A stretch of DNA of 64,000 nt. Origin: a virus (lineage: Duplodnaviria > Caudoviricetes). Positions 2,760 through 63,600 of the stretch are shown here, piece after piece; within the stretch, counting starts at the first letter, position 1, and each line of letters starts with the position of its first letter. Where the stretch lies: the IMG/VR virus record IMGVR_UViG_3300033417_000006, positions 4,281-68,280 of that record. One strand, written 5' to 3'. Below the pieces are notes generated by a model, which saw only the letters and a list, made by a program, of their open reading frames with translations, did no database searches and was not told the DNA's origin. Both the position numbers and the translations under genes were made by a program.

Positions 2760-3868
2760 TCCCATTCCTCCACCAAGTTCTCAAACCACTCGGCCCTTTT
2801 CCTGCGCCACGTCGGGACGCCGCGTTGGAACCCGCGCAGGCCCCCGTTCCAAACCGCGTATTCCTCCCACGGCAACGGCTCGCGTTTCAGCACAGCCAGG
2901 AAACGGCGGCGATTGAGCGCCCTGATCTTGAGCGCAACGGGTTCGGCTTCGTAACGGTTTGCTGCGAGCTTAAACGGTTTCGTTGTGACTTCGCCCCAGG
3001 CAAGCTTCGTGATCTGGAACCGGGACAGTTCGCCGGCGGACCCCACGGCGCCGTCCCTGTTCCCGGACTCGATCTGCGCCAGGGCGTAGAGGAAAGCGGC
3101 GTCGGACACAGCTTGGACTTGGTTCGCGAACAGCATGACAGCGATTGCTATGACGGCGAGTTTAGGCTTCCAGACTCTTGCAATATACCGCGCAAGCTCG
3201 AATGGTATTTTGGCGATCATGGCGGCCGTGGCCTTGCGGGCGTTGATCTTGGATGATGTTCTGCCACTGATTGAGTCAGGATCAGCGAACCAAGCACGGC
3301 CTGATTTGTGTTGCTTTACGCCATCTCCCAGGCGGTGGTATTCCCGATCACTATACGTCCTTGGCCCGCAATGACATTGGAATTTCATGCGTCTTTTCGT
3401 GACAATCGGCATTAGCGCCGGCACGTCGCCAAACAAGTGATAACTTCCGTAGTTCCACCGAGATCGTCCAACCCACGGTTGTGCCCCTCGTACATTTTCT
3501 ATGACGATCGGGCACTCGGCTTCCCGGCCAATACGAACGCAGGCGTCAAATAATGCATTAAGTTCAGCGATGCGTTCAGGGTGCGCGGAATCACGATACC
3601 AAGCCGCCAGAGCCTTGGCTCGCGTCCAAGGCATCGCCATGTAAGAATATTTTTGACAAGGAGGCGAGGCAACGATTAGTTGGACTTTTCCGCGAAATTG
3701 TCTGCCGTCAATGGTGCGAATATCTTGCAAGACGAGTTGTGCAGGGTAGCGATCTTCGCCATAGACGTGCTGTTCTATATCGAATCCGACTACATTCCAA
3801 CCCTCGGCCAATAAACCGTGCGACCATCCACCCAAACCGCAGCACAAATCTACCGCTAGCGGTTTCAT
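2756..3868 (-). CDS. C5-cytosine DNA methyltransferase fused in frame to a signal-peptide-like segment and a lysozyme/lytic-transglycosylase-like domain
   Basis: DLCCGLGG (I), SPPCQ (IV), IENV (VI), AKIPFELA; then KLAVIAIAVMLFANQVQA and ALAQIESGNRDGAVGSAGELSRFQIT; ATGA start at 3868. Confidence 0.8.
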   Translation of the reverse strand: MKPLAVDLCCGLGGWSHGLLAEGWNVVGFDIEQHVYGEDRYPAQLVLQDIRTIDGRQFRGKVQLIVASPPCQKYSYMAMPWTRAKALAAWYRDSAHPERIAELNALFDACVRIGREAECPIVIENVRGAQPWVGRSRWNYGSYHLFGDVPALMPIVTKRRMKFQCHCGPRTYSDREYHRLGDGVKQHKSGRAWFADPDSISGRTSSKINARKATAAMIAKIPFELARYIARVWKPKLAVIAIAVMLFANQVQAVSDAAFLYALAQIESGNRDGAVGSAGELSRFQITKLAWGEVTTKPFKLAANRYEAEPVALKIRALNRRRFLAVLKREPLPWEEYAVWNGGLRGFQRGVPTWRRKRAEWFENLVEEWE

Positions 3869-27692: not shown

Positions 27693-28088
27693 ATGCAAAT
27701 CGAACAATCCCATATTGGAAACCTGCTTGCCGCTCACACCGCCCTTGACGCCATCAAGGAGGACAAAACGCCGCGCTACGATTTCACGCCGAAAGTGGAT
27801 TGGAGCATAAGCAAGAACATCCGGGTTCTCGCCAAGGAAAACGAGCGCATCGAGGAGTTGCGCCAAGACTTGGTGCGAAAACATGGGTTGCGTAAATTCA
27901 AGGAACCCGAGAAAGAAGCCGTGTATGACGTTTTCTTGGTGGAATGGCGGGCGGCAATGCAGGGAGAATTGGACTTGCCACTGTTGCACTTCATCAAATC
28001 CGATTTCAGGTTGAGCAACAACAAAATACCGAGGGGCGTCCTAGCCACGTTGGCGCCCTTGATCGACGATTTTGAAAGTGATGAGTGA
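27693..28088 (+). CDS. Hypothetical protein, tail-fibre assembly/chaperone-like
   Basis: KNIRVLAKENERIEELRQDLVRKHG...LATLAPLI. Confidence 0.5.
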   Translation: MQIEQSHIGNLLAAHTALDAIKEDKTPRYDFTPKVDWSISKNIRVLAKENERIEELRQDLVRKHGLRKFKEPEKEAVYDVFLVEWRAAMQGELDLPLLHFIKSDFRLSNNKIPRGVLATLAPLIDDFESDE

Positions 28089-28344
28089 GCCTAGCGAACC
28101 GAAAACCAGGGCTGACGGCGGGATGACTGATTTTATTCGACGCCCGAGTTTCGGAAAGGCCGTTAATCTCATGGCGTTGATTGCCGGACTCTCGGGATTC
28201 ATGGGCGCTTGGTTCATAATCCCGTATAAGATCGAGCAATTGGAACAGCGGGTGTCCGTTTTGAGTTCAGACCATGACCTATTGATCGAATTGAGAGAAC
28301 GATGCAAGTCAATCGAACGAAAAGTGGACCGGATCGCGCCTTAG
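28081..28344 (+). CDS. Membrane protein (1 TM + coiled coil), holin-like
   Basis: LMALIAGLSGFMGAWFII followed by IEQLEQRVSVL. Confidence 0.5.
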   Translation: MSEPSEPKTRADGGMTDFIRRPSFGKAVNLMALIAGLSGFMGAWFIIPYKIEQLEQRVSVLSSDHDLLIELRERCKSIERKVDRIAP

Positions 28345-28346
28345 CC

Positions 28347-28529
28347 GTGGCGGGGTTGCTGCTCTGGTTCGTCTGCGTCTGGACGGCGTGCAAAACCTTT
28401 GGTGTCAAATCCGTTGACCCTACTCCTGCCGACCCATTGACGAGAGAAGAACTTATGCAGGATATTGAAAGGCTAATGGATGAGTCCGAACAGAAAATCG
28501 ACGAGATCATTCAACACAGGACAAAATAA
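28347..28529 (+). CDS. Small exported/lipoprotein-like protein
   Basis: Hydrophobic N-terminus ending WTAC; helical acidic tail. Confidence 0.4.
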   Translation: MAGLLLWFVCVWTACKTFGVKSVDPTPADPLTREELMQDIERLMDESEQKIDEIIQHRTK

Positions 28530-29215
28530 TGAGGATCAGTATTTCCTTGATCGGGCTGTTGTTGATTATCTTTGCCAGTGGTTGTCTCGGGTTAAAGCCG
28601 TTGAAACCAGGGAAGGCATCGCTTGGGCCGGGAAGCCCGGAGTTCACACAGTCCGAAAACCCGCAGGCCCCGTCCGAAGCCAGTCATGAGTCATCGACGC
28701 AAACTCAGAGATCGTTCCCGCCGGGAACCACGGTCACGGAAACCACGAAAGAAACTGGCAAAGATGGCGTTGAACGAATCTCTGGACTCCGAGTTTACCA
28801 GGTTCCATCCGCATTCGACGAACTGGAAAAACGATTAGACAAAAAGACGGTGAGCATAGGGGCCGCGCAGAAAGATTTGAGCCGTGAAGTCGCGGCGAAG
28901 CTCAAGGCGATGCAACCCGCGATATGGATTGGGCTGGCGCTAATTTTGGGGTCCCTGTTCTTATTCTGGAAAGGGTGGATAACACCGGGCTTGATAGCCG
29001 CTGGGGGCGGTATTGGGCTGATGTTATTCGCGAATCTGATAGCGAGCCATACCGTGCTGTTGCTCGTTTTAGCCTTGATAGGGCTGGCGATTTACATTGT
29101 GTTCTGGTCCTACAACAAGGGTTCGCTTGATCGAATCCTGCCAGATGCACTCGACAAGAACCCGCCCAAATCTGCCATTGACGGTGGGTTGTCGAAGCCA
29201 GTTGACAAAACCTGA
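28529..29215 (+). CDS. Lipoprotein with C-terminal TM helices (unimolecular spanin-like)
   Basis: Lipobox ASGC at residue 19; hydrophobic helices near the C-terminus. Confidence 0.55.
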   Translation: MRISISLIGLLLIIFASGCLGLKPLKPGKASLGPGSPEFTQSENPQAPSEASHESSTQTQRSFPPGTTVTETTKETGKDGVERISGLRVYQVPSAFDELEKRLDKKTVSIGAAQKDLSREVAAKLKAMQPAIWIGLALILGSLFLFWKGWITPGLIAAGGGIGLMLFANLIASHTVLLLVLALIGLAIYIVFWSYNKGSLDRILPDALDKNPPKSAIDGGLSKPVDKT

Positions 29216-29237
29216 TTTAGTGACTATAGTCAAATGA
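29202..29237 (+). promoter_or_regulatory. Hybrid leaderless promoter of tnpB
   Basis: TTGACA-N17-TATAGT-N7-ATG; palindrome TGACTATAGTCA over the -10. Confidence 0.75.
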
Positions 29238-30378
29238 ATGATAACCTACGAGTTCAAGTTGAGACCGAACAAGGCCCAAGAAGCGGCTTTATGGCTTCAA
29301 CTACAACTCACGCGAGAGCTTTACAACACCGCGTTGCAAGACCTAATCGCGCATTACAAGGAAACCGGCAAGCACTTGAACTTATTCACGCAAGACAAGG
29401 CGCACAACAAAGCGACGCACCCGCAAATGCCAGCCGCTCTTGTGGACACGACACTCAAGCGATTGCATCTGTCGTTCGCGCACTTCTTCCGGCGTTGCAA
29501 GGAAGGAGCGCGAAAGAAAGGTTTCCCGAGATTCAAACCAGCAAATCGTTGGCACTCTTTGCATTTTCGGGATGCTGCCGGCAATGGAATTTCGGATTGT
29601 TATTTCAAGGCAGGGAAAATTCTCGGGGGACGCATTCGATTCAACCGGCACCGGGATATAAAAGGTGTCATCAAGTTCTGCCGGGTGCTACGAAAGCCGA
29701 GCGGCTGGATTTTGCAAGTGGTATGCGAAACGAAGTTGGAGCCGTTGCCGAAGACCGGCAAGAGCATTGGGCTGGATTTCGGCGTCAGGCATCTGGTGAC
29801 AGACAGCAACGGCGGCAAGGTGGGGAATCCGAACCATCTCAAGAAATCATTGCGCCGGTTGCGAGTGGCACAACGGCGGATTGCACGCCGCAACAAAGGC
29901 AGCAATCGTCGGAAGAAAGCGTGCCGAGTGGCTGCGCGGATTCACGAACGGATTGGAAACCAGCGGCGCGACTACTTGCACAAGACGGCAAGGCATTACG
30001 TCAACGGTTACGACACTATCTGTGTCGAAAATTTGAACGTGTCGGGGATGGTCAAAAACCATCACCTTGCGCGGGCAATCACAGACGCATCATGGACGAT
30101 GCTGCGACGGTTCATCGAGGCCAAGGCTGCAAGTGCCGGGCGCACGGTGATCGCGGTGCCTCCGCATTGGACATCCCAAAAGTGTTCATCGTGCGGGGAA
30201 ATCGTACAGAAGGCGTTGAGCGTGCGAACGCACGTTTGTCTGCACTGTGGTTACTCGGACTGCCGAGACACCAATGCGGCAAAGAACATTTTAAGGCTGG
30301 GATGCAGCCTTCAGGGAGAGGTTGCAATAGCGACCTCGTTGAACTGATAAACATCGGATTTATCCGATGAGCAATCAC
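29207..30378 (+). mobile_element. IS200/IS605-family solo tnpB element (no tnpA)
   Basis: Preceded by TTGAC; subterminal hairpin CATCGGAT-TT-ATCCGATG (30352-30369); ends TCAC; removing it restores an in-frame end to the upstream gene. Confidence 0.8.
29238..30347 (+). CDS. tnpB: RNA-guided endonuclease TnpB
   Basis: N-terminal YEFKLRPNKAQ; RuvC GLDFG / VENL / RDTNAAKN; zinc finger CSSC...CLHC. Confidence 0.95.
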   Translation: MITYEFKLRPNKAQEAALWLQLQLTRELYNTALQDLIAHYKETGKHLNLFTQDKAHNKATHPQMPAALVDTTLKRLHLSFAHFFRRCKEGARKKGFPRFKPANRWHSLHFRDAAGNGISDCYFKAGKILGGRIRFNRHRDIKGVIKFCRVLRKPSGWILQVVCETKLEPLPKTGKSIGLDFGVRHLVTDSNGGKVGNPNHLKKSLRRLRVAQRRIARRNKGSNRRKKACRVAARIHERIGNQRRDYLHKTARHYVNGYDTICVENLNVSGMVKNHHLARAITDASWTMLRRFIEAKAASAGRTVIAVPPHWTSQKCSSCGEIVQKALSVRTHVCLHCGYSDCRDTNAAKNILRLGCSLQGEVAIATSLN

Positions 30379-30398
30379 AAAAACCCGAAACCAAAGGA
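30200..30398 (+). ncRNA. Predicted TnpB omega/reRNA with guide 30379-30398 (5' end approximate)
   Basis: Established for TnpB: scaffold overlaps the gene 3' end and right end, guide is the right flank; hairpin seen at 30352-30369. Confidence 0.55.
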
Positions 30399-30404
30399 TT
30401 GATT

Positions 30405-30578
30405 ATGATACTCGACTTAGTTGGAACCGCCCTGATCGTTTGGGCCGCAATTCTCTTTAACAGTTTTGCAGTCAAACAAGCTGGCAAATACGTGACGAAA
30501 AAGGAGTGGTGGAACATAACCATTCTCGGCGCTGTCACGGCTGCCATAACAGCCTTGATATTTCACGCATTGCGATGA
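30405..30578 (+). CDS. 57-aa two-TM membrane protein, holin-like (below the ORF-track cutoff)
   Basis: My translation: MILDLVGTALIVWAAILFNSFAVKQAGKYVTKKEWWNITILGAVTAAITALIFHALR; ATGA coupling to the next gene. Confidence 0.55.
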   Translation: MILDLVGTALIVWAAILFNSFAVKQAGKYVTKKEWWNITILGAVTAAITALIFHALR

Positions 30579-30970
30579 TAACAGGTTTGCGAACAATACC
30601 GGGGCGCGCCAGTGAAAGGGTTAAAGCCCTGCATCGCCATGCCGCGGTGGGTGATCAATCGACGAGCCAGATGATCGGCGCACTTGTTACCGCTGGCAAA
30701 ACGCTTTACGTCACCAACATCGTTATTTCTGCGTTCAATGTAAACACGGCCTCCAGGGCCGTGTTTAACGTCCTGGATGGCGATGGCGGCACGTTGCAGT
30801 TGCCTATGCTCCTGTCGGCTGCATCCGCGATTGGCGGTGGAACATCTGCCGCGCCGCCAACTGTGTTCGGCATGGAGACCGAACCGTTGCCGTTCACGAT
30901 CGGGTTTTGGGTGCAGATTGTTGTCGGCACGCTAACGTATAGCGCGTTGTGGATTGGGTACGAGGTTTAG
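30575..30970 (+). CDS. Putative structural protein
   Basis: Beta-rich: VTAGKTLYVTNIVIS. Confidence 0.5.
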   Translation: MITGLRTIPGRASERVKALHRHAAVGDQSTSQMIGALVTAGKTLYVTNIVISAFNVNTASRAVFNVLDGDGGTLQLPMLLSAASAIGGGTSAAPPTVFGMETEPLPFTIGFWVQIVVGTLTYSALWIGYEV

Positions 30971-31338
30971 CTGGCAGGCGCCGTTGGCTTAATCTCCTGA
31001 CCTGACGCGGCAAGGGCAGCCTTGGCTGCTCGCATTCGCGCTTTTTCCTCACTCAAAAGCTTCGCCCATCGCTCCATCTCTTGCCTGGTCCATTTACGAA
31101 GACCCGTTTCGTATTCCCGGACGTAACGCGGTTTGACTCCAAGTTTCCAAGCCATCCATCTCCGTCCCCTGGATGTCCTGTGTCTGGCCTTTTTCATAGT
31201 CAACCCAATTACTGCATCCGACATTGCGTATGGCTTTAGCATTCTACCCTTCCTGGCCTTGCGCGAGCAGCACGCGGCCACTAGCGATTTTCCTTCGCCT
31301 TTTTGTTCTGGCGCAGCCGCGTCATCTGATCGCATCAC
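30967..31338 (-). CDS. HTH (XRE/Cro-like) protein; true start may be internal
   Basis: RRWMAWKLGVKPRYVREYETGLRKW. Confidence 0.55.
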   Translation of the reverse strand: MMRSDDAAAPEQKGEGKSLVAACCSRKARKGRMLKPYAMSDAVIGLTMKKARHRTSRGRRWMAWKLGVKPRYVREYETGLRKWTRQEMERWAKLLSEEKARMRAAKAALAASGQEIKPTAPAS

Positions 31339-31416
31339 CCTCGGAGTCTGACCTCGGCTCCCTCTATCGCCCCCGAGCCATCCCCGATGCCATCTAAAGC
31401 AGAGCTTAGCTTACGA

Positions 31417-32001
31417 CTAACGCCAGACCGTTGATTTCCACAGGATTTTGTTGGCCCAGATTTTTTCTTGGCCCCGCGCATCCCTCCTGGCCGGGATCAG
31501 CCAGCTTTCGCGTTTCACATTCCTCGCCGCCGTGCGCACGGAGTTGTAGCGGTGCCTGAACAATGCAGGCAATGAGAATAGGAATGTGGCCACTTGCAAC
31601 TTGCGTTGCAACGTCCGGTTGTGAATTAGGCCGCGCCGCCCCCAAGGCTCTCGCCATTGGTCGTAATCGCCGCGACTCGCACTCGCCCCATGCCAGCCAG
31701 TACATGAAGCTGCTAGGTGAGACCATCCTGTGAAGATGCTCCCTGCCGATTTGTTGGCATTGGTCGGGAGCAGACCGTTGGAACGACAAAAATAATGCCG
31801 GGGATCGATGTCGCTCCATGCAATGCAAAACTCTGTGGTGGAGAAGGTGCGGGCGCCCGGCTCGTTTGCCACACCGATCAAATTGTTTACAGGATTTTGC
31901 ATTACGCCAATAGACTTGCGCATCCATCGTAAATTCGTCAACACTTTTTTTGCGTTGCGGTTGGCCCGTTTTCGGGCTAAGAATTCTGCCGTGAGGACCA
32001 T
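31417..32001 (-). CDS. Hypothetical protein
   Basis: 194-codon frame with a basic N-terminus. Confidence 0.5.
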   Translation of the reverse strand: MVLTAEFLARKRANRNAKKVLTNLRWMRKSIGVMQNPVNNLIGVANEPGARTFSTTEFCIAWSDIDPRHYFCRSNGLLPTNANKSAGSIFTGWSHLAASCTGWHGASASRGDYDQWREPWGRRGLIHNRTLQRKLQVATFLFSLPALFRHRYNSVRTAARNVKRESWLIPARRDARGQEKIWANKILWKSTVWR

Positions 32002-48613: not shown

Positions 48614-51600
48614 ATGCCAAGCACAGACGAAGAGATATTAGCGGAAGCCCGAAAGCAATTGCATGGGGGCGATCCTCGCACCGCAGAACCTACGGTGGCA
48701 GGACAGGGTCATCCGTCACGGCAATCCATTTTTGGGGTCAGGACTTCCGTTTCCGATGATGATGAGATATTCGCGGAAGCCCGGAGGCAGCAGAAAGCCA
48801 GTGCTATAGGTTTTCGTGAGGCGGCGCGGCGGGAATGGGAAAGAACACCTGGGGAGGAGCTTGTTCCATTCGGTGATGTTGGGAGACTAGTGACAGGAAA
48901 ATCCCCGACCTGGAAATTATATCGCGCCGCAGAAGTGGTTAGGCAAGGAGATGAAACTGATCCAGAATACGAGAGATCGTTGTTGTATCTCAAGGAATAT
49001 CAGGATGAACAGGCGCGTATTCGGGATGAGAGCAGGCGTAAAACTTTCATGGGCAAAGTCGGCAGCGGTATTGTGGGTATTGCCCCGAGATTGCCGAAAT
49101 ACCTCGTTGAATTCGGAGTGACAGGACCCCTCTACACCCTGGGAAGAAAGGTGGGATCGAAGTTATTGGGGAAGGGCGCGAAATCAGCGGTGAGCAAATT
49201 CGCGGGGCGCCAACTCGCAAGAGCCACTGGGGCGGCAGCACAAACGCCAGCGGTGATGGCAGGTAGTATCGGGGAAAGAACCATTCAAAGGCTGACTCCG
49301 TATTTAAATATCACCGAGGATGAAACCGGTAGATTGGAAGCCGCGTTTCAAGATACCGACGACAATTTTCTAAGCGCATTAACCAAATCCTTTGGAGAAG
49401 GATTCATTGAAACCGCGACAGAACGGAGCGGTTTGCATTTGATGAAGCCATTGAATAAGGCCGCGACAAAGCTCGGTTTGAAGCGGGCCATAACAGCGCG
49501 TTGGCTTGAAAAGAATCCCAATGCAACTGTGGATGATTTAATAACCAAACTTCGATCTAAGACGGCTTGGCATGGACCGATTGCCGAAATTCTCGAAGAG
49601 GAAGCCGGAAAAGCCGCTAGGGCCGGAGTCGGGCTTGAAGAATACAAACTGACAACATTGGATGAATTGGTTGCCATGGGGGCATCGTTTGCCCTGCCGG
49701 AAGCCGGGTTTCGCGGACTCCGTGGATTGAGCAGGTTAGCAACAATGAGGAGGGATTATGCCACTGATGAAAGGGCGGAGCAGGAAGGTCGTGAGCCGGA
49801 ATATCGCCGAACTGAGGCGGAGCGGGAGGAAGAAAGGCAAGATAGGGAACGTGCGATTGCGGAACAAAGAGCACGAGAGACGGGTAGCCGCGGCGGTCGC
49901 GCTACGCCAGGCGGGCCTGTCGAAGTTCGGGAAGAAGTGACGGAACCGAAAATCCCGATCATTGGCGGCGTCAACTCCGCTGATCTTCGTAACATTGCCT
50001 CTGCCCTTGAACCCGCTATTGATCGTGGGTTGGCAGCCGCGAAGGAGCGCGGGGATGTTTTCGGTGAAGCCAGGTTATCGACGAGACAAGGGCTTGTCCG
50101 GCAATACCTCGATGATCCAAGTCCTGCCAATGCAAAACGATTGGGTCGAGTTCTTGGACTTGAAATCAACGAAGATGCCGAGGGTGTACCGACGATCTAC
50201 GAGGCACTCAGGGATCGTGGGGCAACAATGGTGACGGAGGTAGAACGACCCAAAGGCGAGGCGAAGGCTATCGTTGAGTTCGAGGATGGATTGTGGTGGA
50301 GAACGGAACCAACGGGATTCCGGTATGGCCCATTTGGGAGTCGCGCGGATGCCATGGGAAGGGTGGCTAAACCGCCTAGCAAACCAGCCCCGGCCGCCGC
50401 TGAGCGTGTTGAAGAAGTGACGGAGGACGAGACTCAACCCAAGCCACCGGAGTTGATGCCGTTGGCAGGACTTGGGGCAGAAGAACTTGCGGAGGCGCTC
50501 AATCTCTATGCCGATAAATCTGCTGGATTTGACAAACGATCAGGCAAAACGGTTGGTTTTACCAGAACAACCAGGATAACTGCTGGCCTGCCGTTGTGGG
50601 AGAACATGACGCCGGACGAGCGCATGGCTGAGTTCAGGAGTCGCGCGCAGGAAGATTTCAAAAAGGCGTCTGAGGAAGCTGTAAACCCCGTGGAATACAT
50701 GATCGAACGGGCATTAGACCCATTGGACCCGATGTCGGGCATATATAAGATTCTGCTGCTGAATCGTGGGGCCGCAATCGAAGGTGGCAAGATAAGGTTA
50801 TCTCCAGAGCTTGAGTCGCTGCGGGCGGGCCGATCACTTCCAGGGGCAAAGCCTCCGCGTCCAATTATTTCTGGATCGCGCTGGTCCGCTGTAACACCAG
50901 TCAAATCCGCTGGCGTAGATGGTGTATGGGGCGTGGTTGATGCCGCTGATTTGGTGAGTTCAAACGATAGCGGTTACGATCAGAGGTTTCAGCCAAGGGA
51001 TCGTCGAAGAATGGCGAGTCGCGAGCAAATCGCGGAAATAGCTTCCAGGCTGCAACCGGAACGGCTCGGCGCATCCGAGACTACGGATTTAGGGTCTCCA
51101 ATTGTTGATGAACACAATCAAGTGCTTTCAGGCAATGGAAGGTTGGAGGCCATACGGCTTATTTACGATTCTCAGAGCGAGCGAGGAGCCGAATATAAGC
51201 AATTCGTTATGCGCGAGGCCCAAAGACTTGGGGTTGATCCAGCGAAATTAGAAGGGATTAAGCAACCCGTGCTTGTAAGGCGAGTTACGAATTTCGGCGA
51301 GATAACCAAGGGAGAATTTGCAAGGCAAAGCAACGAACAACAAGTCTTGGGGATGAGCGACGCGGAGAAGGCCAACCGTGACGCGGCTATGCTTGTTGAT
51401 AATCCAGGGTTGCTAGACATTTTTCTTCCCAATGAAAGTGGTGATGTTTTAGCCGCAAGCAATCGTGAATTTTTGAATAAGTTTATTCAGGGAACAGGGG
51501 ACCGGGCAACGCTGCTTAATGCCGATGGCAGTTACAACGTTAAGGCGCTCGGGCCGCGCGTGAAAGCGGCTGTATTGGGCGCACTTTTAGGAGCCGAAGA

Positions 51601-54600
51601 CAGAAACACAATTTCAAATTTAGTTGAACGCGCTGTTGATTTGAACATTGCGAACGTGGCTTCCGCGCTTCAAAACGCCGCGCCACGATTGTTGAAGTTC
51701 CGCGGCAATCCGTATGACCTCAGCCCGATTTTGAACCAGGCGATAAAAGATTTGGTAACGATCAGAACAGAGGGGCGGAAAGCGGAGGAATTTCTTGGGC
51801 AATCGACATTATTCGGGGATGCCCAACGGACCGCTGAATCGGATTACCTGCTTTTACAGTTTGCAAAACTCGGAAGCTCGAAGCAGATTGCAGAAGGACT
51901 GACTCGGTATGCTGAGCTTGCATCGAAAATTGATGTCACAACGCCGGACATATTCGGAGCTAAACTAGCAACCAGGGAAGAATTATTACAGCAAGCTTAT
52001 GAACGCAAACAAGCACCCGAAGCCAGCCAAACCGGTCTCCCGCTGGCAAAACCTCCAGGACAAGCTCCGCCAACCGGGCCACAGGCTCAACCTGCTGCAA
52101 AAGGCGTTCCAACACCGCCCGGTCCAGCCGCCGAAGCACCGGCGGTAACGCCGTTTGGTTCAGAGAATGTTTTGATCAGCGCACAACGAGCGGAAGAACT
52201 TAAGAAGCGCATCAAGGACAAGCTGAAGAACGTAAACATTGGAATTGACCCAACCATCTTCTCTGATGCCGTTCAACTCGGCGCATATTATATCGAAGGA
52301 GGGCTCCACCGATTTTCCGACTGGGCTGCCAAAATGTTGGAAGATTTAGGAGACGTAATCAAAGATCATCTAAGGAGTATTTATGAAACCGCCAGAGTCA
52401 CTATCGAATCGCCAAGCGGCGAAAGCCGTAGCGGACAACCCCCCGGTCTTCAACCCGGACTACTACCTCCAGGAGAGCGCATCGTCACCGCCCGACCTGA
52501 GCATACCAATGCCGCGGATGAGTCAGTCATCCCAAAAGAACTCCTCCCGCACCTTGATCCGCACCAGAGGCAAGGCTCTGCGACTGCGATAAGAAGCATG
52601 GAAGTCCGCGGCGGCATGTTGCTCGCCGATGCCGCTGGAGTTGGTAAAACTAGGCAAGGAATCACAGTCGGAAAGTACGAGGCTGATCGCGGATCAAAGG
52701 TCGTGATTGTAACGCCGTCGATGGTCATAAAGCAGAACTGGAAAAAGGGAACGTTTGGTGGCAGCTACGCCTACGACTCCGGCCAGATGGGCGTCAAGAT
52801 CAGGCTTGCTAGGGATGGCAATGTCAATCCAGGCGAGATCGGAATCACAACGCATGAGAACTGGAAGGACATAGCAGCGAACACCGACGGCAACACGGTT
52901 CTGATCATAGACGAGTGCTTTGTGCCTGGAACTAAAATCAAGATGGCCGATGGGACTCTGAAGGAGATCGAGAAAATAAAACCTGGCGAGTTTGTAAAGA
53001 ACGCATCTGGGTGCGGAGAGGTGGAAGCCGTAAGTAGGCGTTGGGCTGGATCGTTGGTAAAGATCGCTACGGAGGCTGGCAGCGTGATATGTACCCCAAA
53101 TCACCCGTTCCTTACACAACATGGATGGATTAAGGCTGGACAACTTAGCCAATCACACTATCTTAAAACCCATGATGAAACAATGCGAATGGTGTGGGGT
53201 TCGGTTTGTGGGGAAAATCGACCAGCCGAAACAGAGATTCTGCGGGACTTCCTGTTCGGCGAAATGGAGGACCAGCCGACCAGAATCGAAGGCGATGTAT
53301 TCGACGCCGCAATTCCTGAAACATCTTTCAGAAGGTTTGAAACGGGCGCACAGCTTGAATCCAAAACTTGCGGAGGCGGCTTCACGGCGTATGACGACGA
53401 ACAATCCAATGCGGATAGATGGAGTTCGGGAAAAGGTGTCAGCCACGCTTCAACGAATCGGCCACGGCCCGTCGGTCAGGGGTGGGAACGGAACTGGCCC
53501 AACAGCGGCGGAGCAGATTTTGTTGAGTGCTCTACCTGGGACGAAGCACAACCACGCCGTTTCGCTTGGAAAGAGAACAAAGGGCTATCCGACATGCTAC
53601 AAGGTCGATGTAGCCATGCCCGGAATCAGGATGGCAATAGAGTGCGACGGGTTATCCCATGGCGCTTTTGCGCGACAACTTCAGGACCGAAAGAAGGAGG
53701 CGAAACTGTTGGAATTAGGGTGGATAGTGTTGAGAGTGTCCAACAAAAGGATTTTACACGATACGGCGGCGGTAATTCTGGAGTTGAAGTCTATAATCTT
53801 CAGGTTTCAGGACATCCAAGCTACGTCCTATCCAATGGTGCGGTAGTCCACAACTGCCACTTCCTTAAGAATCAAAGCCAGCGATCACAGCACGCAACTC
53901 GTGCGATTGCAAAAGCGAAGTCGGTCCTGTTCATGTCCGCAACGCCTGGCGACAAACCTGAGCACATCTATTATCTCGCTCGCATGGGGATCATGGAAGG
54001 AAAGACGGTCCAACAGCAGCTTAGCGACCTTGGCATGACACTCGTAACCATCGACAAGATGGTTAAGGAGGCTGATGGCACTTGGCGAAAGCGACGGATT
54101 ACGTTCTGGGCTCCAGACCAGCGCGTTACTGATACCCAACGGCACGAACGGTTCAGCGCCCTGTTCGACCGAATGACCGCAAGTGGCGCGATGCTGAAGC
54201 GTGAGATCAGCATGAAAGGGACTCATGTCCAGGTGTTAAAGATTACGCTGCCTCCCGAAGCTCACGACGCACAGCAACTCATCATTGACACGGCTTTGCG
54301 AGCTTACCATGAATCGCATTTCGATGATGTGAAGGGACTTAGGAAAGCCAACATCCTCATGCACCTTCGGCGGCAACAGGAACCATTCAAGATTGCCTCA
54401 GCGGTGATGCTGGCACAACGCGAGTTGGCTGCTGGGCGGCAGGTGCTTATTTTCGTGTCGAGGGTCAATGAATCTGAGGCCGGCTTTAACGAGTACGTGA
54501 AGACGCTGTCTGGAGAAGTCGAGACGGTCCGGCATGTTGCTATGACGAGCGAAGGAACCGCTAAGTTGCTGCGCGAGGCACTCGAAGACGCCGGGATTCA

Positions 54601-57600
54601 CGACATAGCCGAGATTCATGGCGGAGCCGAGCAAGGCGCGTTGGAGGCGTTATCAGATTACCAGGGTGGCCGGAAGCGGGTGATGATTGCGACCATCGAG
54701 AGTGCAGGCACCGGGATTAACGCCGATGACATCGTCGGAAACCTACCCCGGTCCATGATCGTCGTGACTGCACCGTTTGACGCCGTCAGCAACGTTCAAG
54801 CGGCGGGTCGTATCTGGAGGCTCAAGACGCTGAGCGGCTCGAATTATTTCTTTCTGTTCGGAGACACCTCCGTTGACGATTGGAACGCCGACATCATCGG
54901 ATCGAAGATGAAACAACTCGGTGCCATCGTTGAGGGCCAGATTAGAAAACTGGATATTTCGGACCCGGACCTTGACAGCACAGACGATTACCACGAAACG
55001 ATGCGAGGTCAGCCGGCTGGGCCGTCAACGGCGGTGGTGCTCGAAAAGTTTCCGCAGTTGGAATGGAAACCGTTCCAGACCAAAGGCGGCAGGCAGATGT
55101 TCGTTGCGTCTGCAACGCCTGCGTTCTGGAAGTGGTGGAACGCGAACGGCAAAAGGGATAATGCGCTCGGCGTCTCGGTAACTAAGTATAAAGAGCAATG
55201 GCAGGTATGGTCGGACAAACCTTTGATTGTCAGAGGCCAGTTGCGCGAGGAACAACCGCTTTTCGGAGCACCGGAGACCGTTGAGCAACAGAAAGCCAGG
55301 GAATTAGCTGAGCAAAAAAGGCGCGCTGAAGCCGAAGCCAAACGTAAACTGGAAGAGCGCGCGTCGAAAAAACTAACGGGCACAGCCGGAGACCTCGGTC
55401 AGAAAGACCTTTTCGGCGGCGAAACCGATCTTTGGGCCATGAAAGAGGCGAGTGGCGACCAACCAACGCTTGATGGCATAGCCCAAGATATTTATGGCAA
55501 AGACTATGATGATTTGACCCAGGACGAAAAAGGTGTTACGGATGTTACCTATGAAGCCGAACTCAGGGTATCCTCCAAAAAAGAAACCCGGCGAGAAGGG
55601 ATATACCCCGAGGCAGGTGAGCCGATTGTCGAGACCCGCCCCATACGACAAGCCCGCGCCCAAACCACTGCTGATCTTAGCCGAACCCACGAAGAACTGC
55701 TTGCGGATGCAGAGCAATTAAGCGCGGATGTTACGCGGCTTAAACATGAACTTTTTAACGCCAAAGGTCAGCCATACGAAAGCAGGCTTCAGGCGCAACT
55801 GGAATCTGCCCAGGCCAATTTGCTGGAAATAACCGGGGAATTGAATTCCCGAATGGACCGGTTGCGTGGAATACCACGCTGGGTCGAACTTCAAACAAAG
55901 AGCAAGCGCGGCAGCATAACATCCGCCGAAGAGCTTGAATTAACCGGCATCCGAGCGCAAGCAGATCGGGAAGCTCGATCCGAACGTGCGAGTGCCACAC
56001 AAGCGCAATTAGGTGAACCGCGAGCCATGTTTTACTCCCGGCTGACGCGAACAGTCGAGCAATCTCAACAGGGTCGGGCCACGGGCGCACAGTGGAAGGC
56101 CACGATCAAAGGCAGCAAACTCGGGGTAAGCCAAGGCGAAATGGATTTGGTTGGCATCGAGGATTTGGAGGACGGCAAGACCTACACGAAACAGGAAGTA
56201 CTGGATTATCTCAAGGCGAATGAAGTGGTGGTCAAGGATGTGACGCTGGGAAAAGAACCGGTAGCTTCGTTGCCACTCAGGCGGTTTATGTATCGAGAGG
56301 GCATTGAAAGCCCCACCACCACGGATGAGTGGCTGAACCTTTCAGGTAGGATTGAAGACAAGGCAAAGGCGTTGTCAATGCGAGGCGACGACAGGCAGGC
56401 GGCAGAGTTCTTTGAAATGGCAGAAGCCGCGAACAGGGCCGCCGAAGGACTTGATCCTGAAACCGGAAGCACGCAAGGCCAAACCCGCTTCTCCACCTAC
56501 CAGCTTCCCGGCGCGAAGAAGGGGAGTTATCGCGAAGCGCTGTTGACGGTGCCGGAAGATGCTGGTCTTTCGAAGATGACAGACGCGCAAATGCGGGATT
56601 TTTACCAGCAGGCATTTGGCGTCATGCCTACTGAGGCGATGGATACGGAGACCCTACGCAAAGACATCGAGAAGAAACTACGCTACCACGGAACAGATTT
56701 CGTTGAGCGCATGGGTGGAGTTAAGTCGCCGATGACGGTTTGGCGCGACGGCCACTCCCAATTCTCCGACATAGCCAATCCAATAGTCCGCCTCCGATTC
56801 AACGAACGCACAACCTCCGACGGTAAGCGGATGCTGTTCCTTGAAGAAATCCAACCCCCGCTAAAAGGCGAGTTCGAGAAGATGCCCGCGCTGTTCCAGA
56901 AGAACTGGCGGGAGATTGCGTTTAAGTATGCTTTGAAGTTAGCCGCATCGAGCAGCGAGAGCCTTGACCTTCAACGCCTCAGAAACCCAAAGAGCATTTG
57001 GGAACTTGGTGAGAATGTCTTTGGGCGAGAAATGGCATCGGCGATGCCGCTGGAGGTTGTGGATGGTGGAGTGCTGTCCGCTTTTCATCACGACCAAGTT
57101 CTCCAGGCGGTTGTCTCGAATCTTCCCGTTGACGTGGTGAACAACCTCACACGACTCAAGATTTCTCCCGATAGCCTGCTCCGCAATCCATCTATGGTCT
57201 TTGAGACACTTCCCGTCTCTGCTCGTAACTCGATAGCGCGAGGGGTTCTCGGTGCGATGCGCGAGGTTGGCGCACTCCTTGGAGCAAAACTGGCGAGTGG
57301 CCTCAATCGAGGGGTAGATGTGGAAATCCTTCCCGCACTGATGGCAAGCCATTTGGAGGTCAGAGAAGTTGTGGGAGCGCTTGCCCCTCAATCCCTTTAC
57401 CATGATTTCAATGCGCGTGGGGGCTTGGAAAATCGCCCTGCATCGCTTGGAACAAAACAACCCGCGCCCGTTTTTTATGTAACAGGAAGGGGCATAGAAA
57501 GGCTTCCGACAAACGGGGCAGAGTTTTTGAGCACCGTTCTTCCGGCAAGCGGTAGAGCAGAATCGGGCGTCGGCGCGACTAGGCCGAACGCTGAAGGTGG

Positions 57601-60600
57601 AGGAGCACGTCTCGCAGATGTTCTGGACTGGCATAACAAAATCCTACGCGAAACAGGCAACTCAAAGCAAGGAGATTTCACACCCGAAATTTCAGCACTT
57701 GGCTGGACCACGGGCGAGCAGCAGGCGGAGCGGTATGATTTGAGCAAGCAAGTTGACGCCATCAAGGTCAACGTCAGAACCGATGGCAACTTCAACATTG
57801 AAGTTAAGCCACCTGGAAATCTCGGATTCAGAGCCATCGCATCTGGTATAAAACCAGGCGAACTGGAGAACTATATCGGGAAGGATTTATCTCGGAAGGT
57901 TTTAGAAGGATTGGATTCGGCATCGGAATTTGTTTACGAAGGGGTTAGCCTCAAAGTCGGTGGTGAGGGCCTGACAAAACTCTACGATGTGGACTTTCGC
58001 AACGTCGTCAACAACCTGCCAGCGGTGAAGAAGTCGGGGCAGAAGGTCGGGACGGCGGAGATTCCAAAACCCTCTGGAAGGCAAATCTCCGAAGAGAATC
58101 AGTTAGGAAGGATGAAGGAAGGAAGCTGGGTCGTTCAAGAAGAAGGTGGACAGTTTCTCTATGGAACACCATCCGAAGCGCAAGCAACTGCATGGGCAGA
58201 ACGCCAAGGGCTTAAAAATTACAAAGTCTTGGAGAATGATAAATACGGAGAGACCGATTTAATCCACTCCCTCACCCTGACTCCGCAAATTCGCGAATCC
58301 GTCATGGGCGGGCAAGCACTGTTTCAGTTGCCAGCGGGTTCCAAAGGATTGGCCAGCACTCAACAACTCATAACGCAACAAATCAAGGCGAAGCGCGGCA
58401 TCATCGAGCAGGCGCCGGAGATCGCGGTTGGATTGGAAGACATTCTTGCCATGGTTGAAAGGAGCGATTTGCACTCCGCTGTCAAAGGTGTGCTGGTCAA
58501 CTTTCTGCGAAAACCATTTGCGAAGAAGCTGGATTTGAGCCGGTTGACCCTGGAACTCCGGGATTATTTGGATCACGGTTATTCCGGCGAGATCATTGGG
58601 AGCCTGATTCGAATTGGTCGAGACATGGTCACGCCAACAACGTTACCGCATGAGATCGACCATTTCTTATTCAATTTCCTGCCGCAAGAGAGCCGTGACA
58701 TCATCGAAGCCGAGCGACGCAGAAGGTTGGAGGCAAGGGCCAGGGAACTCGGGATTGACTTGAAAGATTTGCCCGTGGATTTGGTGGCGGGCATGATGGA
58801 GTCCGAACATTTTGCGGAAGCCCTTGCGGCTGGGGCGCTCCCTCGATCACTTTATCCATACATCAATGCCGCAGAGTTTTCGGCTTGGATTACCAGTGCC
58901 GAGGCGGAACTTGAATACGCGCAGCGCGGGGCGCTCCGTGACATCATAAACACCATCATGGATTGGTTACGAGGTTTGATGGATGGCTTGAGGCGAATGG
59001 CGGGTTTTACGCCGTCATTCGAGCAGGTGATGAGAGAAAAGCTCGCGGGCCGGTACATGAACAGTGCCGAGAGCGGATCGGCATTTGATAAGACCCGAAG
59101 GGCATCATTTGCCGAGGACCCCAAACATGCACAACGTTTGGTTGCACGAGCCAAAACAAGGGGCGAAGAGGCTGAGAAAGTCGAGCGTCAACTTATTGCA
59201 ACCCAGGTTGCGGCTCCGATTAAATTCATCGAAAAACATGGTCCCAAGGATAATCCCGTTGTCTCACGGATGTTGGGATTATTCGATATGCAGAACATCA
59301 TGGCGGCATCGGAAACAAGTGATGCCCCGGAATATCGGGAGTTAAGGGAGCAACTGAAAAACACCGCCTATTTTCACGTAGCGGCGTGGGAGGTCGGGGC
59401 GCGGTTTCATGTGCAGAAACAGCGATGGCAGGAAATCCTTGATGACAGGGATGTCTTGGAAAAAGAAATAGGGAGTCCTGGCTTCAAGGCAAAGCTGAAA
59501 CGGCTATCGGAAACTCAACTTGCCGAGGAAGCCATAACGGATGGGATAAAGCAATTCATGGCATCATCGTCGGCGGCGGTTCAAAAGGCGGTGACGAGAA
59601 TGAAGACGGAGGCATTGAGTGAAGCTGAATTGGAACGGTTGATGGCCGAGGTAAGAGACGGAGAATCAAGAAAAGAATACGAGGCTGCAATTCGCCAGGC
59701 CATCAAGGATATTATCAGGATTTTGCCTTCCGAAAAATTGTCGCAACTTTATGACATCGGCGAGCACCATGAGTTGGAGTCTGAATATAACCGGTTAAAA
59801 TCCGAGTTGTATGGCGTGGAAAAGACGACGCAACCCATGGACCCGAACATTGTCAGGTGGGCATTCGAGGCCATGCGGGTTGCTCCGAGAGAAACCCGGA
59901 AGATCGCGGTATCGAGGTTGATTCAAACCAGCCGTGAATTCTCGAAGGAACTCAGTGATTACGAAAAACAGGTTGTGACGGAAATGGAGGCATCGCCACG
60001 AAAAGCCGTGACGAAAATGTTGGAGAAACAACGGACATTAACCCGGAAACAACAGATGTTGCAACTTGCTTTCGAGGAGTTGCACAAGGACTTGCAGAAG
60101 AAGATCAGGGATTACGGGAACCATGTGAGCGCAGGCGCGGTTGTCGAGGCCATTTTTGTCGATGCAGACGTAAGAGCGTATGAAAACACGGTGAATGTTG
60201 ACGGTGGCATCGAGGCCCGCCCGATGGCGCGTGTTCAGGTAAATGGCGAATGGATCAACGTCAAGGATTTGCATTACGACGTGGTTTCCGGCAACCCGAT
60301 CTTCGTGAGGCCCAACGGACAATTATTGCAAGTGAACATAACCGGGGATGTGAAGCAATTCGCGGCGGAACGGGAGAAGCTGCGGGCATTGCTCCAGGAA
60401 TGGTATGATTGGAAAGATGTTCAGGACAAATTGGCTCCCGAGGTAAGGGACCCGCACTACCAGTTTTTTCTCAACACAATATCTGCGATCAATCATATCT
60501 ATCTCTCGACGCGCGTGAGCCAGCCCGCGAGCGCGGTGGCGCCTGCAAATATCCTGAGCAACCAACCATTGAGCGATTGGGATATGCCACGATTTTTGAT

Positions 60601-63600
60601 TGACGATCTTGCAAACAGGATTGGCGGCGCCGTGAAAGTTTTGGGCCAGAATTTCAACAGGGTTTTCCTGCATTTACGGGCGATTCTTGCCGATAACGTT
60701 TATAAACAGAAGAATTTAGCCCGCCGCGCGGTGAACAGTTTGGGTCTAAAAAAGGGCAGGTCATGGGGAGAAGCTTACATGGTGATGTATGACAAGGTTC
60801 TGAAACCATTGGCGGCGATGGCGCAAAGACCGGAGGCTCGATTCGAGGTCGGTTACGAAATTGTCGATGGTTACAAGGTGACACCTGAACTCCTGCAATA
60901 TCTGGAATGGCAATCCAAGATTGCGGCGCAAGCCTTCAATGCCGTGCAAGAATTGGTGCCTGGAGAGCGACCGGGCCTGGCTTTTACCCCGGTGATCGAG
61001 GACGCCGTTCTGGGATATTCTTTCTTCGGAAAATCAATTCCTGTGAGTCGTTACACACTGCCGTTTGGCGGGTATAGCAATGATGCTCTTGCCTTTGGCC
61101 GGGCCTATGCCCAGGCGAAACTGGAAGGTGACAGGGGCAAACAGATGCAATTGCTCAAGAACAACTGGGAATTGTTGGCATCGTATATTGTTGATCGGGC
61201 GAGCATGGCCCGGGTGGTATCTGAATTTGAACCCGCCTATGAATTGTTGGCGGAAAAGATAAGGGCAGGGACCATCGAGGAGAAAAGCTTTGATTGGGTT
61301 GCGAGCCGGATAGCCGAAATCATGCCGGCTGAAACCGAGGCGGAAATAAGCGAGGAAGAACATCTTGAAAACATCGGGGAAAAACTGGTGTCGGAATTGG
61401 ATAACCTCGTTAATTTCTTCAACAAAATTGAGGGAGAGAAATCCGCAACGGTCCATATCAAGACGCCGGACAAAAAGAATTCATTTACGGCGCGTCGCCA
61501 TGACCAGACCTTGCCCTATTACTTCTTGGATTATGGCTGGCGAACATCCGGCAATTTCCTGAACTTCATGTACAACGGCCATACCCATGCCTACGAGCGA
61601 TTCGCGCATGGCCTTGAAGCCGTGCTGAAAGATTTGCAACGGCAACAATCCGAGTTGACGACGAAGTATAAGGAAAGAGCGGAGAGACTCGGCATAACGG
61701 AGGAACGATCGAGGAAAGAGCTTGTGAATGAAAACAAACTCGCTTTTCTCAACGGCCAGACCTTTGACCAGTATTGGGGTTTGGAGAAACGCATTCGGCA
61801 ACTTAAGAAAGCGATTCAGAACACCATGGAAGTTTGGGCCGGCGGTAACGACGCCGAGATGGACATCAGGGCTTACATGCGATTTCAGCGCAGCGTGATT
61901 GGCGGAATTCTGAGCGGGCCGGCGACGCTTATACGAAACGGCGGGGGATTAGCTTACCTTGGGAATGTTTTGGCGAGGACCATGAGGAGCGGCGTTGAGG
62001 CCGGTGGGGTGGCGGCATGGAATATCATTTGGAACGGCATGTTCAAGTATGTGCCATCGGCGGCTTTGGGCGTGGCGAAGATCGGGGTTAAGCTGCCGGG
62101 ATCGGCCTATACATTTCTGAAAACATTGGCAACGACCAGGGACGTTCAGATGTCCGTGGTGAAAGCTGTTTCACCCTTGATCCAAGAATTGTCGAAGAAT
62201 GTTTATAGCAGGATCGAGGATTACAGGACCATGGAAGAAAATCGGTTGATGATGCCAATTGATAGCGTCAATGAATTCGAGGCGAAAATATTCGATTTAG
62301 CCAATGCCGGCCTCATTATCGAGCGACGCCGGGGCCTCATGGAAACCACGGCGCTATCGTTGCTAGGTTTCTTCGACGACTTCGTTCTGACGGCGCTGAC
62401 AAAACCTGTGTTGCCAAGGCTCGGCGATGCCAGCATTAACAGCGCTGCTCTAGCCTCTGGGTCGACGGTGTTGAATCGAATCGAGAAACGGTTGCGGGTG
62501 CTCTTCGAGCAATGGAAGAAAAGCGGGGCCATCGAGACGAGATTTAATTTTACCGACAGGAACGATCCAAGGAACGTGTTTGCCGGGCAGGAAATATTTC
62601 CAGGAAAAGTTGAGACGTTATCAAGACAAAAGATGGCTTTGTTGGAGCAGTATTTCGATTGGACAGGCAAGACTTTCCACGAGGCCGCCTATGATTTCAT
62701 CAAGGCATTGCATGAGGGGCGCGAGGCTGAATTCATGGATAAACACGCAAGACTTCAGTTTGCGGAACAAATCGAGCAAGAGATCAATGTCGCCGGGCCG
62801 TTAAACCGGCCGCAATGGACTCAAAAGGCGGGTTTCTTCAATCAGATCATGGCGCCTCTCATGGGCTGGAATGTTCATGCTTTACGAACATTTCCGAAAG
62901 TGTTGTCTCGACCCGGTGTGAATCCGCATACCAGCCGATTGGTGATGTGGATCACCATTGCCACCATGGTATTGCCAGTGGTTATAGCCTTGAACCTGGC
63001 TCAAGACACAGGTCTCGAAGAATTGATCCGGTTATTCAGCAAACACGGATTAGGAATCGAAAGGCCGACGCGCCAACCATGGGAACGAGAGGGAACCCGG
63101 AGCCAAGCCATCGCCACCTTGATTGCCGCCGTAAATCCCGTGCCGTACCTGGCAACGGTAGTCAACACGGCTCTGAACGATATGCCCAACAGGGCGAGCT
63201 ATGACATCAATCCGGTGATGATAAGCAAACTCAATGACGTGGTGACTTATATGGGGGGTGTGGTCAATACCGGGGACCCCTTGTATGGATTGAATTATCT
63301 CGTGAAAGGGTTCCTGCCGGTATCAGAGGCTTTTCTGAACAGGATACCGTGGTTACGGGGAACTGCAGAGGCCCTGAGCGCGCGGCGCCTCATGACGAGA
63401 TTCGGACCGCAGGACCTTCTGAGGGAAAAGGTTGGGGGCGGCGGCATGTCGCGATTGGCGACACCGTTGACACCTTATGCCGATCGAATGCTGAACGCTG
63501 CCATGCAAGAGGATTGGCCGGAATTCAACGCGCAGTATGCCGAGGCGGTCGAAGTCGCCCGGGAATTGGGCCGTGACGAGCCGGAGGAGACGGTACAGGA

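Follow-up and report, generated by a model that had tools for sequence, protein, structure and literature searches.

How does an element that encodes a nuclease hold its place inside a phage operon? Cas12 descends from TnpB elements. These are common in phages, and to our knowledge no explanation exists for how they survive in operons as compact and tightly coupled as those of phages. The locus described here, in IMG/VR virus record IMGVR_UViG_3300033417_000006, raises this question. We analyzed a 64-kb stretch (the window, to which all unlabelled coordinates refer) of the 68,280-bp record, whose estimated completeness is 75%, and in it a tnpB gene that lies between two phage genes (Table 1). 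The first-pass annotation, made by a model from the letters of the window, had described a TnpB element with a readable guide that borrows the −35 box of its promoter from its target site and repairs the gene it has entered. Our results indicate that the TnpB element is real and that its guide was correctly read, that the borrowed −35 box is probably wrong, and that homing, which had also been proposed, is plausible.

The reading that we prefer, with a probability of roughly 0.55, departs from the earlier one at the left end. Taken jointly, its parts are as follows. The left end would extend past the boundary first drawn after 29206, most likely to 29156; TTGACA-17-TATAGT would then be an internal promoter from which tnpB is transcribed without a leader; NTGAC, located 5′ of the left-end hairpin, would be the motif that the clade targets; and, with the left hairpin decayed and the right end conserved, the element would probably no longer be moved by a transposase. 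In what follows, labels beginning with L denote DNA loci (of TnpB relatives, except for L064 and L066, which hold homologues of the upstream gene), and P0002, P0148 and P0149 are protein entries.

A TnpB element with an intact nuclease

The product of tnpB matches, in order along the chain and above the Pfam cut-offs, a helix-turn-helix domain (PF12323, 6.7e-7), OrfB_IS605 (PF01385, 4.9e-29) and Cas12f1-like_TNB (PF07282, 1.3e-21), and it matches PHROG 506 (E = 4e-102). Homology to ISDra2 TnpB (PDB 8bf8) extends across residues 6–354, the full length of the protein, with an E value of 1.8e-49. The RuvC residues D180, E264 and D344 and the zinc-finger cysteines C316, C319, C334 and C337 occupy invariant columns among 30 relatives; the ISDra2 positions aligned to the RuvC triad are D191, E278 and D361. 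These domains, the intact nuclease residues, the full-length homology and the conserved guide-RNA scaffold described below bear out the initial identification of the protein. A nuclease-dead TnpB repressor (TldR) was considered and rejected, the RuvC triad being intact and the guide matching only its own flank within the window.

Judged by its sequence, the element is a tnpB-only, IS1341-like member of the IS200/IS605 type, resident in a phage and without TnpA. No Y1 transposase (PF01797) was found in the 68-kb record, which is about 75% complete, and a host could supply one. Relatives of up to 82% identity lie in phage-like contexts throughout and are co-oriented with their neighbors, and TnpB relatives occur in 427 of 50,697 GenBank phage records. 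Gene callers in all three assemblies annotated a 378-residue open reading frame (ORF) in the +2 frame in place of tnpB. Because the wrong frame was called, the protein collection lacks the real TnpB of this phage, whose best database match is only 82% identical.

The right end and the guide

The 3′ regions of about 30 relatives (30–82% identity) share the arrangement GAGAAGC-hairpin-GAG..(A/G/T)TCAC or GTCAA, and among these aligned relatives all similarity stops directly after the TCAC/GTCAA terminus. The final 150 nt of the element fold at −57.8 kcal/mol, compared with −37.8 ± 3.6 kcal/mol for shuffled sequences (z = −5.6). Compensatory changes on both sides were found at 17 of the 24 consensus pairs in the eight closest relatives. 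An Rfam scan of 29000–30700 returned no family. Since twenty-odd relatives share the scaffold to its end at 30378 and diverge immediately thereafter, the guide is read as 30379–30398; the divergence of relatives after TCAC, the scaffold fold and the covariation thus place both the right boundary and the 20-nt guide exactly where they had first been drawn.

The guide AAAAACCCGAAACCAAAGGA is unique in the window, even when 3 mismatches are allowed. Its resident copy is preceded by ATCAC and not by NTGAC, which on our analysis is the usual self-protection. Beyond the guide come TGA (30400–30402), two T residues and the ATG at 30405.

A probable internal promoter of tnpB

The bases on which the first-pass annotation relied were all found in place: TTGAC at 29202–29206, TATAGT ending at 29230, ATG at 29238, ATCAC ending at 30378 and ATG at 30405. 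Its near-consensus promoter for a leaderless tnpB also stands. TTGACA-17-TATAGT is the best sigma-70-like match within 28000–31500 (11 of 12 positions), and the tnpB start codon lies 7 nt past the −10 box, without a Shine-Dalgarno sequence. The layout TTGAC-16/17-TAnnnT-6..9 nt-start is found in about 13 relatives, a recurrence that puts it beyond chance. Elsewhere in the phage, other ORFs start 5–8 nt after a TAnnnT that has TTGnnn 16–18 nt upstream (19183, 23904, 33937 and 40300 on the + strand; 22143, 9441 and 8023 on the − strand). The pattern suggests that leaderless expression is common in phage and host.

The proposal that the −35 box is borrowed from the target site probably fails. In ten relatives with an intact left-end hairpin (L016, L018, L023, L005, L021, L026, L028, L030, L072 and L015), the homologous TTGAC box lies inside the element, 11–75 nt downstream of that hairpin, and the box is therefore best read as the element's own −35. 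The hairpin of these relatives is two-tiered, of the type AAAT-CCCACC-CTTTAG-GGTGGG, and resembles the hairpin at the right end of the same element; matching left and right pairs are present in L018, L021, L023, L026 and L028. Matching subterminal hairpins inside both ends are a hallmark of IS200/IS605 elements (PMC8612924). In five of the ten, NTGAC is found 5′ of the left hairpin, at distances of 19–20 nt (L016, L018, L023), 12 nt (L005) and 11 nt (L015), and GAC occurs at the equivalent place in relatives. With NTGAC upstream of the hairpin in relatives, the TTGAC at 29202–29206 of the window, which had been taken for the target-adjacent motif (TAM), is more likely a −35 box.

In the window, GGTGGG lies 13 nt 5′ of TTGAC, compared with 11–14 nt in L016, L021, L005 and L026, and this 3′ arm and AAATC are in register with the left hairpin of the relatives. 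Only these two stretches of the hairpin are kept; the 5′ arm is non-complementary at the aligned place.

Placing the left junction

Three GAC sequences, ending at 29155, 29182 and 29206, are candidate junctions, and all three are in the same codon phase. TCGAC at 29151–29155, the preferred candidate, would be a one-base synonymous variant of the NTGAC of relatives (CTC for CTT, both Leu). The junction at 29182 is less likely because it would cut the left end inside the hairpin-like region. The third candidate is the boundary of the first-pass annotation, and the weight that remains beyond these three (Table 1) goes to other junctions.

Several observations count against a left end at 29156 and NTGAC as target motif. 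An unconstrained local alignment of 29136–29201 with the left ends of relatives was not significant (p ~0.1), and the likeness is positional only. TCGAC deviates from NTGAC at T, and the TTGAC sequences at 29178–29182 and 29202–29206 fit better. AAGAACCCG (29156–29164) is identical to the right flank AAAAACCCG at 8 of 9 positions, forming the repeat AARAACCCG. Each copy encodes KNP after a GAC codon, and since P0002, a homologue of the upstream protein, shares ...LPDALDKNP with it, 29156–29164 could be native gene sequence. The residues through which ISDra2 TnpB contacts its TAM (Y52, S56, K76, F77, Q80, T123 and N124) are not conserved in the window TnpB, so that the target motif is not inferable by homology. 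Finally, no empty allele was found (see below) that would show the left junction and the target motif directly.

Some of these points favor the boundary drawn initially, by which the element would span 29207–30378 and begin with a hairpin-free left end of 31 nt, and TTGAC would be both target motif and −35 box in a promoter completed by the site. The TTGAC at 29202–29206 agrees better than TCGAC with the outer-junction NTGAC of L015, L016, L017, L018, L005 and L023; the KNP codons are as expected for native gene sequence; the stretch upstream of 29206 does not align significantly with other left ends; and in L015, L016, L005 and L072 the −35 TTGAC happens to contain a TTG from which the downstream gene could start in phase. 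We nonetheless consider this boundary unlikely. The homologous box of the relatives lies within the left end, 3′ of a hairpin whose counterpart is found at the right end of the same element, and GGTGGG and AAATC of the window keep the register of that hairpin. A hairpin-free left end of 31 nt would not be insertable by a Y1 transposase under the IS200/IS605 mechanism (architecture in PMC8612924). The resulting length of 1172 bp is, moreover, about 50 bp shorter than L016 (1225 bp), L005 (1230 bp) and L018 (1245 bp).

An imperfect direct repeat (10 of 12) comprises GACAAGAACCCG at 29153–29164 and CACAAAAACCCG at 30376–30387; its copies mark the preferred left-end start and the right junction, each encodes KNP after GAC or CAC, and the repeat blurs the left boundary. 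IS200/IS605 elements create no target duplication. L070, whose TnpB is 89% identical to that of L018, is without the first ~52 nt of the left end of L018, including the hairpin, and its shortened left end (1946–2000, compared with L018:2434–2545) again adjoins the ATGA stop of an upstream gene. In L017 only 18 nt, with a Shine-Dalgarno sequence, separate ATGAC from tnpB. In these relatives, left ends decay and right ends remain intact. L015:2205–2396 holds a short gene for a Cys-rich, zinc-finger-like protein (63 residues); the stop of this gene falls within GGATGAAAC, 5 nt before the outer TTGAC of the L015 element.

Proposed cutting of empty sites and homing

In the logic established for ISDra2, TnpB cuts TAM plus guide in element-free DNA, and the concept of homing is likewise established (PMC8612924). 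That such cutting can spread an element in which no transposase takes part has been demonstrated with IS605 in plasmids (PMC11870625), and a 2026 review proposes it for phages (PMC13565253). By analogy, TnpB and its guide would cut NTGAC followed by AAAAACCCG... in genomes without the element, and recombination with a filled genome would then copy the element in, giving homing between co-infecting relatives or sister genomes. We rate this course of cutting and recombination a little short of even odds.

Searches for element-free sites were uniformly negative. No empty allele was found with the junction of the first-pass annotation in viral contigs, with the left flank and right flank separated by a gap of 0–12 nt in metagenome contigs, or with the right flank and the next gene in metagenome and viral contigs; nor were the predicted empty sites of L005, L016 and L018 found in viral contigs. 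Exact-protein look-ups of three flanking genes returned filled copies only. All four contigs that encode the exact 228-residue upstream protein carry the element, and a look-up of this insertion-made form could return only filled copies. No homologue of the flanking gene came closer than 44% identity.

An improbable alternative to homing is that the element is a stranded vertical resident, which keeps TnpB and its guide RNA, has no target left in nature because every copy of the phage is filled, and persists only through being nearly neutral as an insertion. It would accord with the lack of an empty site in the viral and metagenome collections, with the degenerate left-end hairpin and the absence of a transposase from the record, and with the four filled contigs, although the look-up that returned these could not have found an empty allele. 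It fits poorly with the intact nuclease residues and guide scaffold, which covary across relatives and point to continuing selection on cutting, and with the occurrence of relatives at different sites in unrelated phages, which indicates that the clade does move.

Start codons in the right end

The first-pass annotation had the element repair its target gene. Deletion of 29207–30378 does extend the upstream ORF in frame to ...PVDKNPKPKD*, and the same is equally true for junctions at 29155, 29182 and 29206. A replacement stop does exist, AAA ACC TGA (29207–29215) closing the upstream ORF (28529–29215) as ...PVDKT*, but it is within chance: the 31 nt before tnpB close all three frames, and the tails of homologues are not conserved. 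Depending on the junction chosen, the final 3 to 20 codons of the upstream gene would come from the left end of the element. The claim that this gene pays little holds, since the insertion affects only an unconserved tail that varies freely among homologues. The idea of repair is right in spirit, and on sequence grounds it is better illustrated at the right end, which appears to supply an in-frame start downstream.

In seven relatives (L015, L016, L017, L018, L021, L005 and L072), a start codon within the 3′ end of the element opens an ORF that exits the right end and runs 52–286 codons into the downstream phage gene, and in all seven the phase is such that two right-end bases combine with one flank base. 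In four of these, the outer NTGAC contains the native start of the downstream gene in the same phase (L016:2360–2364, L017:1352–1356, L018:2434–2438 and L005:1415–1419). For example, ATGAC/G... would read MTHEEA..., and the filled site ATGAGCATCAC/G... reads MSITHEEA.... In two of them, L016 and L018, the preceding gene ends on this same ATGA. Because NTGAC supplies a start codon, and in these two also a stop, such elements sit exactly on gene junctions. For L018, the downstream DnaC/IstB-like protein was compared with 1.8 billion representatives, and the N-termini of its homologues do not align.

In the window, the right end of the element has one extra base (ATGAGCAATCAC), and this places the ATG of the terminal hairpin in frame with a 7-codon remnant of the interrupted gene. 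The resulting mini-ORF stops 2 nt before the ATG of the next gene at 30405. A hairpin ATG was rejected as a feature of the whole family; it is found only in the four closest relatives, others having GTG or TTG, or an ATG 45–54 nt further in. In L072, an ORF from the right end (3091–3315) encodes a YegP/DUF1508-like sequence, KGKWEWRVWSQGRITATS..., recognized by eye, in a frame that differs from the gene called there (3195–3533).

A stop-free frame across tnpB

The +2 frame across tnpB contains no stops in 370 codons, compared with 12.5 ± 2.8 in synonymous shuffles, and none of 5000 such shuffles was stop-free. Other genes of the phage have 0.6–1.1 of the expected number, with none close to zero. 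Taken together, the stop-forming contexts T/AA, T/AG and T/GA occur once, compared with 42 expected, and T/GG, T/GC and T/GT occur at normal levels. The frame is likewise free of stops in L015 (82% identity) and has one, near its end, in L072 (69% identity); P0148 and P0149 are two more full-length copies, present as called proteins. Distant relatives have the expected number of stops. Between the window, L015 and L072, fourfold sites have diverged almost to saturation (0.37–0.58 identity), which argues that openness has been maintained and not merely inherited.

The +2 frame is also the frame of the upstream gene, whose stop at 29215 lies 18 nt before the ATG at 29234. At its other end, the stop of the +2 frame overlaps the right-end start, in the form ATGA (window, L015 and L016) or TAATG (L072). 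Three of these overlaps, ATGA twice and TAATG, open ORFs that run out of the right end in the frame of the downstream gene. At the level of sequence, then, the ends of successive ORFs overlap or abut the stop before and the start after (29215, 29234, 30370/30367, 30402 and 30405). A start of the L015 +2 frame at the ATG of its outer ATGAC (2317) was rejected, as 2205–2396 is the real Cys-rich gene mentioned above.

These features suggest a translational relay. The upstream ORF would end at the left-end stop; the +2 frame, from ATG 29234 to TGA 30370, would carry ribosomes on read-through transcripts across 1.2 kb; and, its stop overlapping the right-end ATG (ATGA), the mini-ORF would then be translated and end 2 nt before the next start. 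We offer tentatively, as something closer to a one-in-three proposition than to an even one, that the element limits harm to the operon it has split by means of a left-end stop, a +2 relay and a right-end ATG. We hold with the same reserve the wider proposal that the clade is translationally transparent, landing on NTGAC start codons, often at ATGA junctions, and bringing with it a replacement start of the same phase in the right end and a stop-free frame, so that ribosomes on polycistronic phage transcripts could pass over the insertion and initiate again on the displaced gene.

Three results weigh against the relay. In five of the eight close relatives (L016, L018, L017, L070 and L067) the +2 frame has 3–10 stops, below expectation. 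At every level of divergence, the amino-acid sequence is no better conserved in the +2 frame than in the +1 frame. Finally, transcripts from the element's own promoter would probably begin downstream of ATG 29234.

That the +2 frame encodes a real second protein, 378 residues long, rich in Arg, Ala, Gly and Gln and probably disordered, is very unlikely: the frame is open in five lineages, an ATG located 4 nt ahead of tnpB is shared by the window, L072 and P0148, and an end point in the right-end hairpin by the window, L015, P0148 and P0149, but its amino-acid identity at no divergence exceeds that of the non-coding +1 frame, the fourfold sites of tnpB are near saturation, no family matches the product, and its Protein Atlas model is poor (predicted local distance difference test 0.42, predicted template modeling score 0.26). 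The Protein Atlas matches of the product are TnpB clusters, as expected for a wrong frame over a real gene. Given the lack of extra amino-acid conservation and the poor model, selection seems to be on openness.

Comparison with known systems

The closest point of comparison is ISDra2 of Deinococcus radiodurans, whose TnpB works with a right-end guide RNA (PDB 8bf8, 8exa and 8h1j; PMC8612924, PMC10097598). Both have full-length homology, a RuvC D-E-D triad and a zinc finger, in both the guide RNA spans the 3′ end of tnpB and the right end and draws its guide from the flank, and their 5-nt target motifs (TTGAT in ISDra2; here NTGAC, as predicted) share a TGA core. The present element differs in having no tnpA, unconserved TAM contacts, its own leaderless promoter, a decayed left hairpin and a phage replicon. 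The proposed homing resembles that of IS1341-type elements, in which a homologous site that has no element is cut by the nuclease and acquires a copy during repair, with no need of a transposase (PMC11870625; PMC13565253); in phages, such "non-restorative", TnpA-independent homing is still theoretical (PMC13565253).

Like the free-standing homing endonucleases SegF, SegB and Mob of T-even phages (PMC13565253), the element is a selfish gene for a nuclease that has lodged between conserved genes of a phage, and it would be expected to act in co-infection, excluding markers of the competitor. Unlike them, it would read the flank through a guide RNA, and self would be told from non-self by the insertion itself and not by nearby sequence differences. 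IStrons, which combine a group I intron with a TnpB element (PMC10690162), likewise lower the cost of a TnpB element to the interrupted gene. They do so by splicing from RNA, whereas the route proposed here is translational, through the left stop, the relay frame and the right start. Mycobacterial interspersed repetitive units (MIRUs) are 40–100 bp long and carry no gene of their own; a small ORF in them overlaps the stop before and the start after, coupling translation within the operon. The likeness is that inserted DNA acts as a relay of translational coupling; the difference is that the relay frame here is 1.1 kb long and overprinted on a nuclease gene.

Full-text literature searches returned no description of a TAM serving as a −35 box, of a leaderless tnpB, of an overprinted tnpB frame or of a right-end start codon. 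Of the features that the sequence suggests here, the start codon at the right end and the relay frame free of stops would be new. If they work as proposed, the clade earns its place by keeping the genes on either side of it translated; avoidance of stops in a second frame is a new constraint on the nuclease gene and shapes its codon choice; and a third route by which guide-RNA nuclease elements avoid harm joins IStron splicing and intergenic landing. The position of the target motif also has practical weight. If it is placed at the promoter box, a TAM or interference assay would test the wrong substrate, and the three candidate junctions define three possible substrates that share one guide.

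Neighboring genes and other features of the locus

Table 1. Features of the tnpB locus, with positions in the window
Feature	Position	Strand	Description
Upstream phage gene	28529..29215	+	228 aa; lipobox FASGC; C-terminal membrane helices
Left junction, preferred candidate	29151..29155	+	TCGAC (cTCGAC); cut after 29155; element 1223 bp; weight ~45%
Left junction, second candidate	29178..29182	+	aTTGAC; element 1196 bp; would cut within hairpin-like region; weight ~10%
Left junction of the first-pass annotation	29202-29206	+	gTTGAC; cut after 29206; element 1172 bp; weight ~27%
Predicted empty-site reads			GCACTCGAC/AAAAACC (29155); GCCATTGAC/AAAAACC (29182); CCAGTTGAC/AAAAACC (29206)
Left end, preferred model	29156..29237	+	Degenerate hairpin region AAATC ... 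CGGTGGGTT, then promoter
Sigma-70-type promoter	29202..29230	+	TTGACA-17-TATAGT, for leaderless tnpB; first five bases were the TAM of the first-pass annotation
Stop-free +2 frame	29234..30370	+	378 codons from ATG 29234; open from 29216; spans all of tnpB
tnpB	29238..30347	+	369 aa; RNA-guided nuclease family; intact catalytic residues
Putative guide-RNA scaffold (omega RNA, or right-element RNA, reRNA)	30229..30378	+	Overlaps tnpB 3′ end and right end; 5′ limit approximate
Right-end terminal hairpin	30351-30368	+	CATCGGAT..ATCCGATG; intact
Mini-ORF MSNHKNPKPKD*	30367..30402	+	ATG in right-end hairpin; reads remnant of interrupted gene
Right terminus of element	30374-30378	+	ATCAC; similarity of relatives ends here
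Predicted guide (empty-site target)	30379..30398	+	AAAAACCCGAAACCAAAGGA; flank directly 3′ of conserved right end
Downstream phage gene	30405..30578	+	57 aa; two hydrophobic helices

The same phage is also present in one ENA assembly and two short contigs. The description of the upstream gene as spanin-like, and of its surroundings as lysis genes, is unsupported: neither neighbor matches a recognizable family, the upstream gene having no match in Pfam or PHROG and the downstream gene none at threshold in a family search. Homologues of the upstream protein are 27–44% identical to it, with unconserved C-terminal tails, and their genes adjoin another gene directly, without tnpB between. At the nearest homologues (L064 and L066) tnpB is absent and the downstream genes are unrelated, so that synteny backs an insertion only loosely; a search of viral contigs for loci related to the upstream protein returned none. 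The Shine-Dalgarno sequence AAGGA of the downstream gene sits inside the guide region. Farther along the + strand, a single ORF of 5115 codons (48614–63958) occupies about one quarter of the window.

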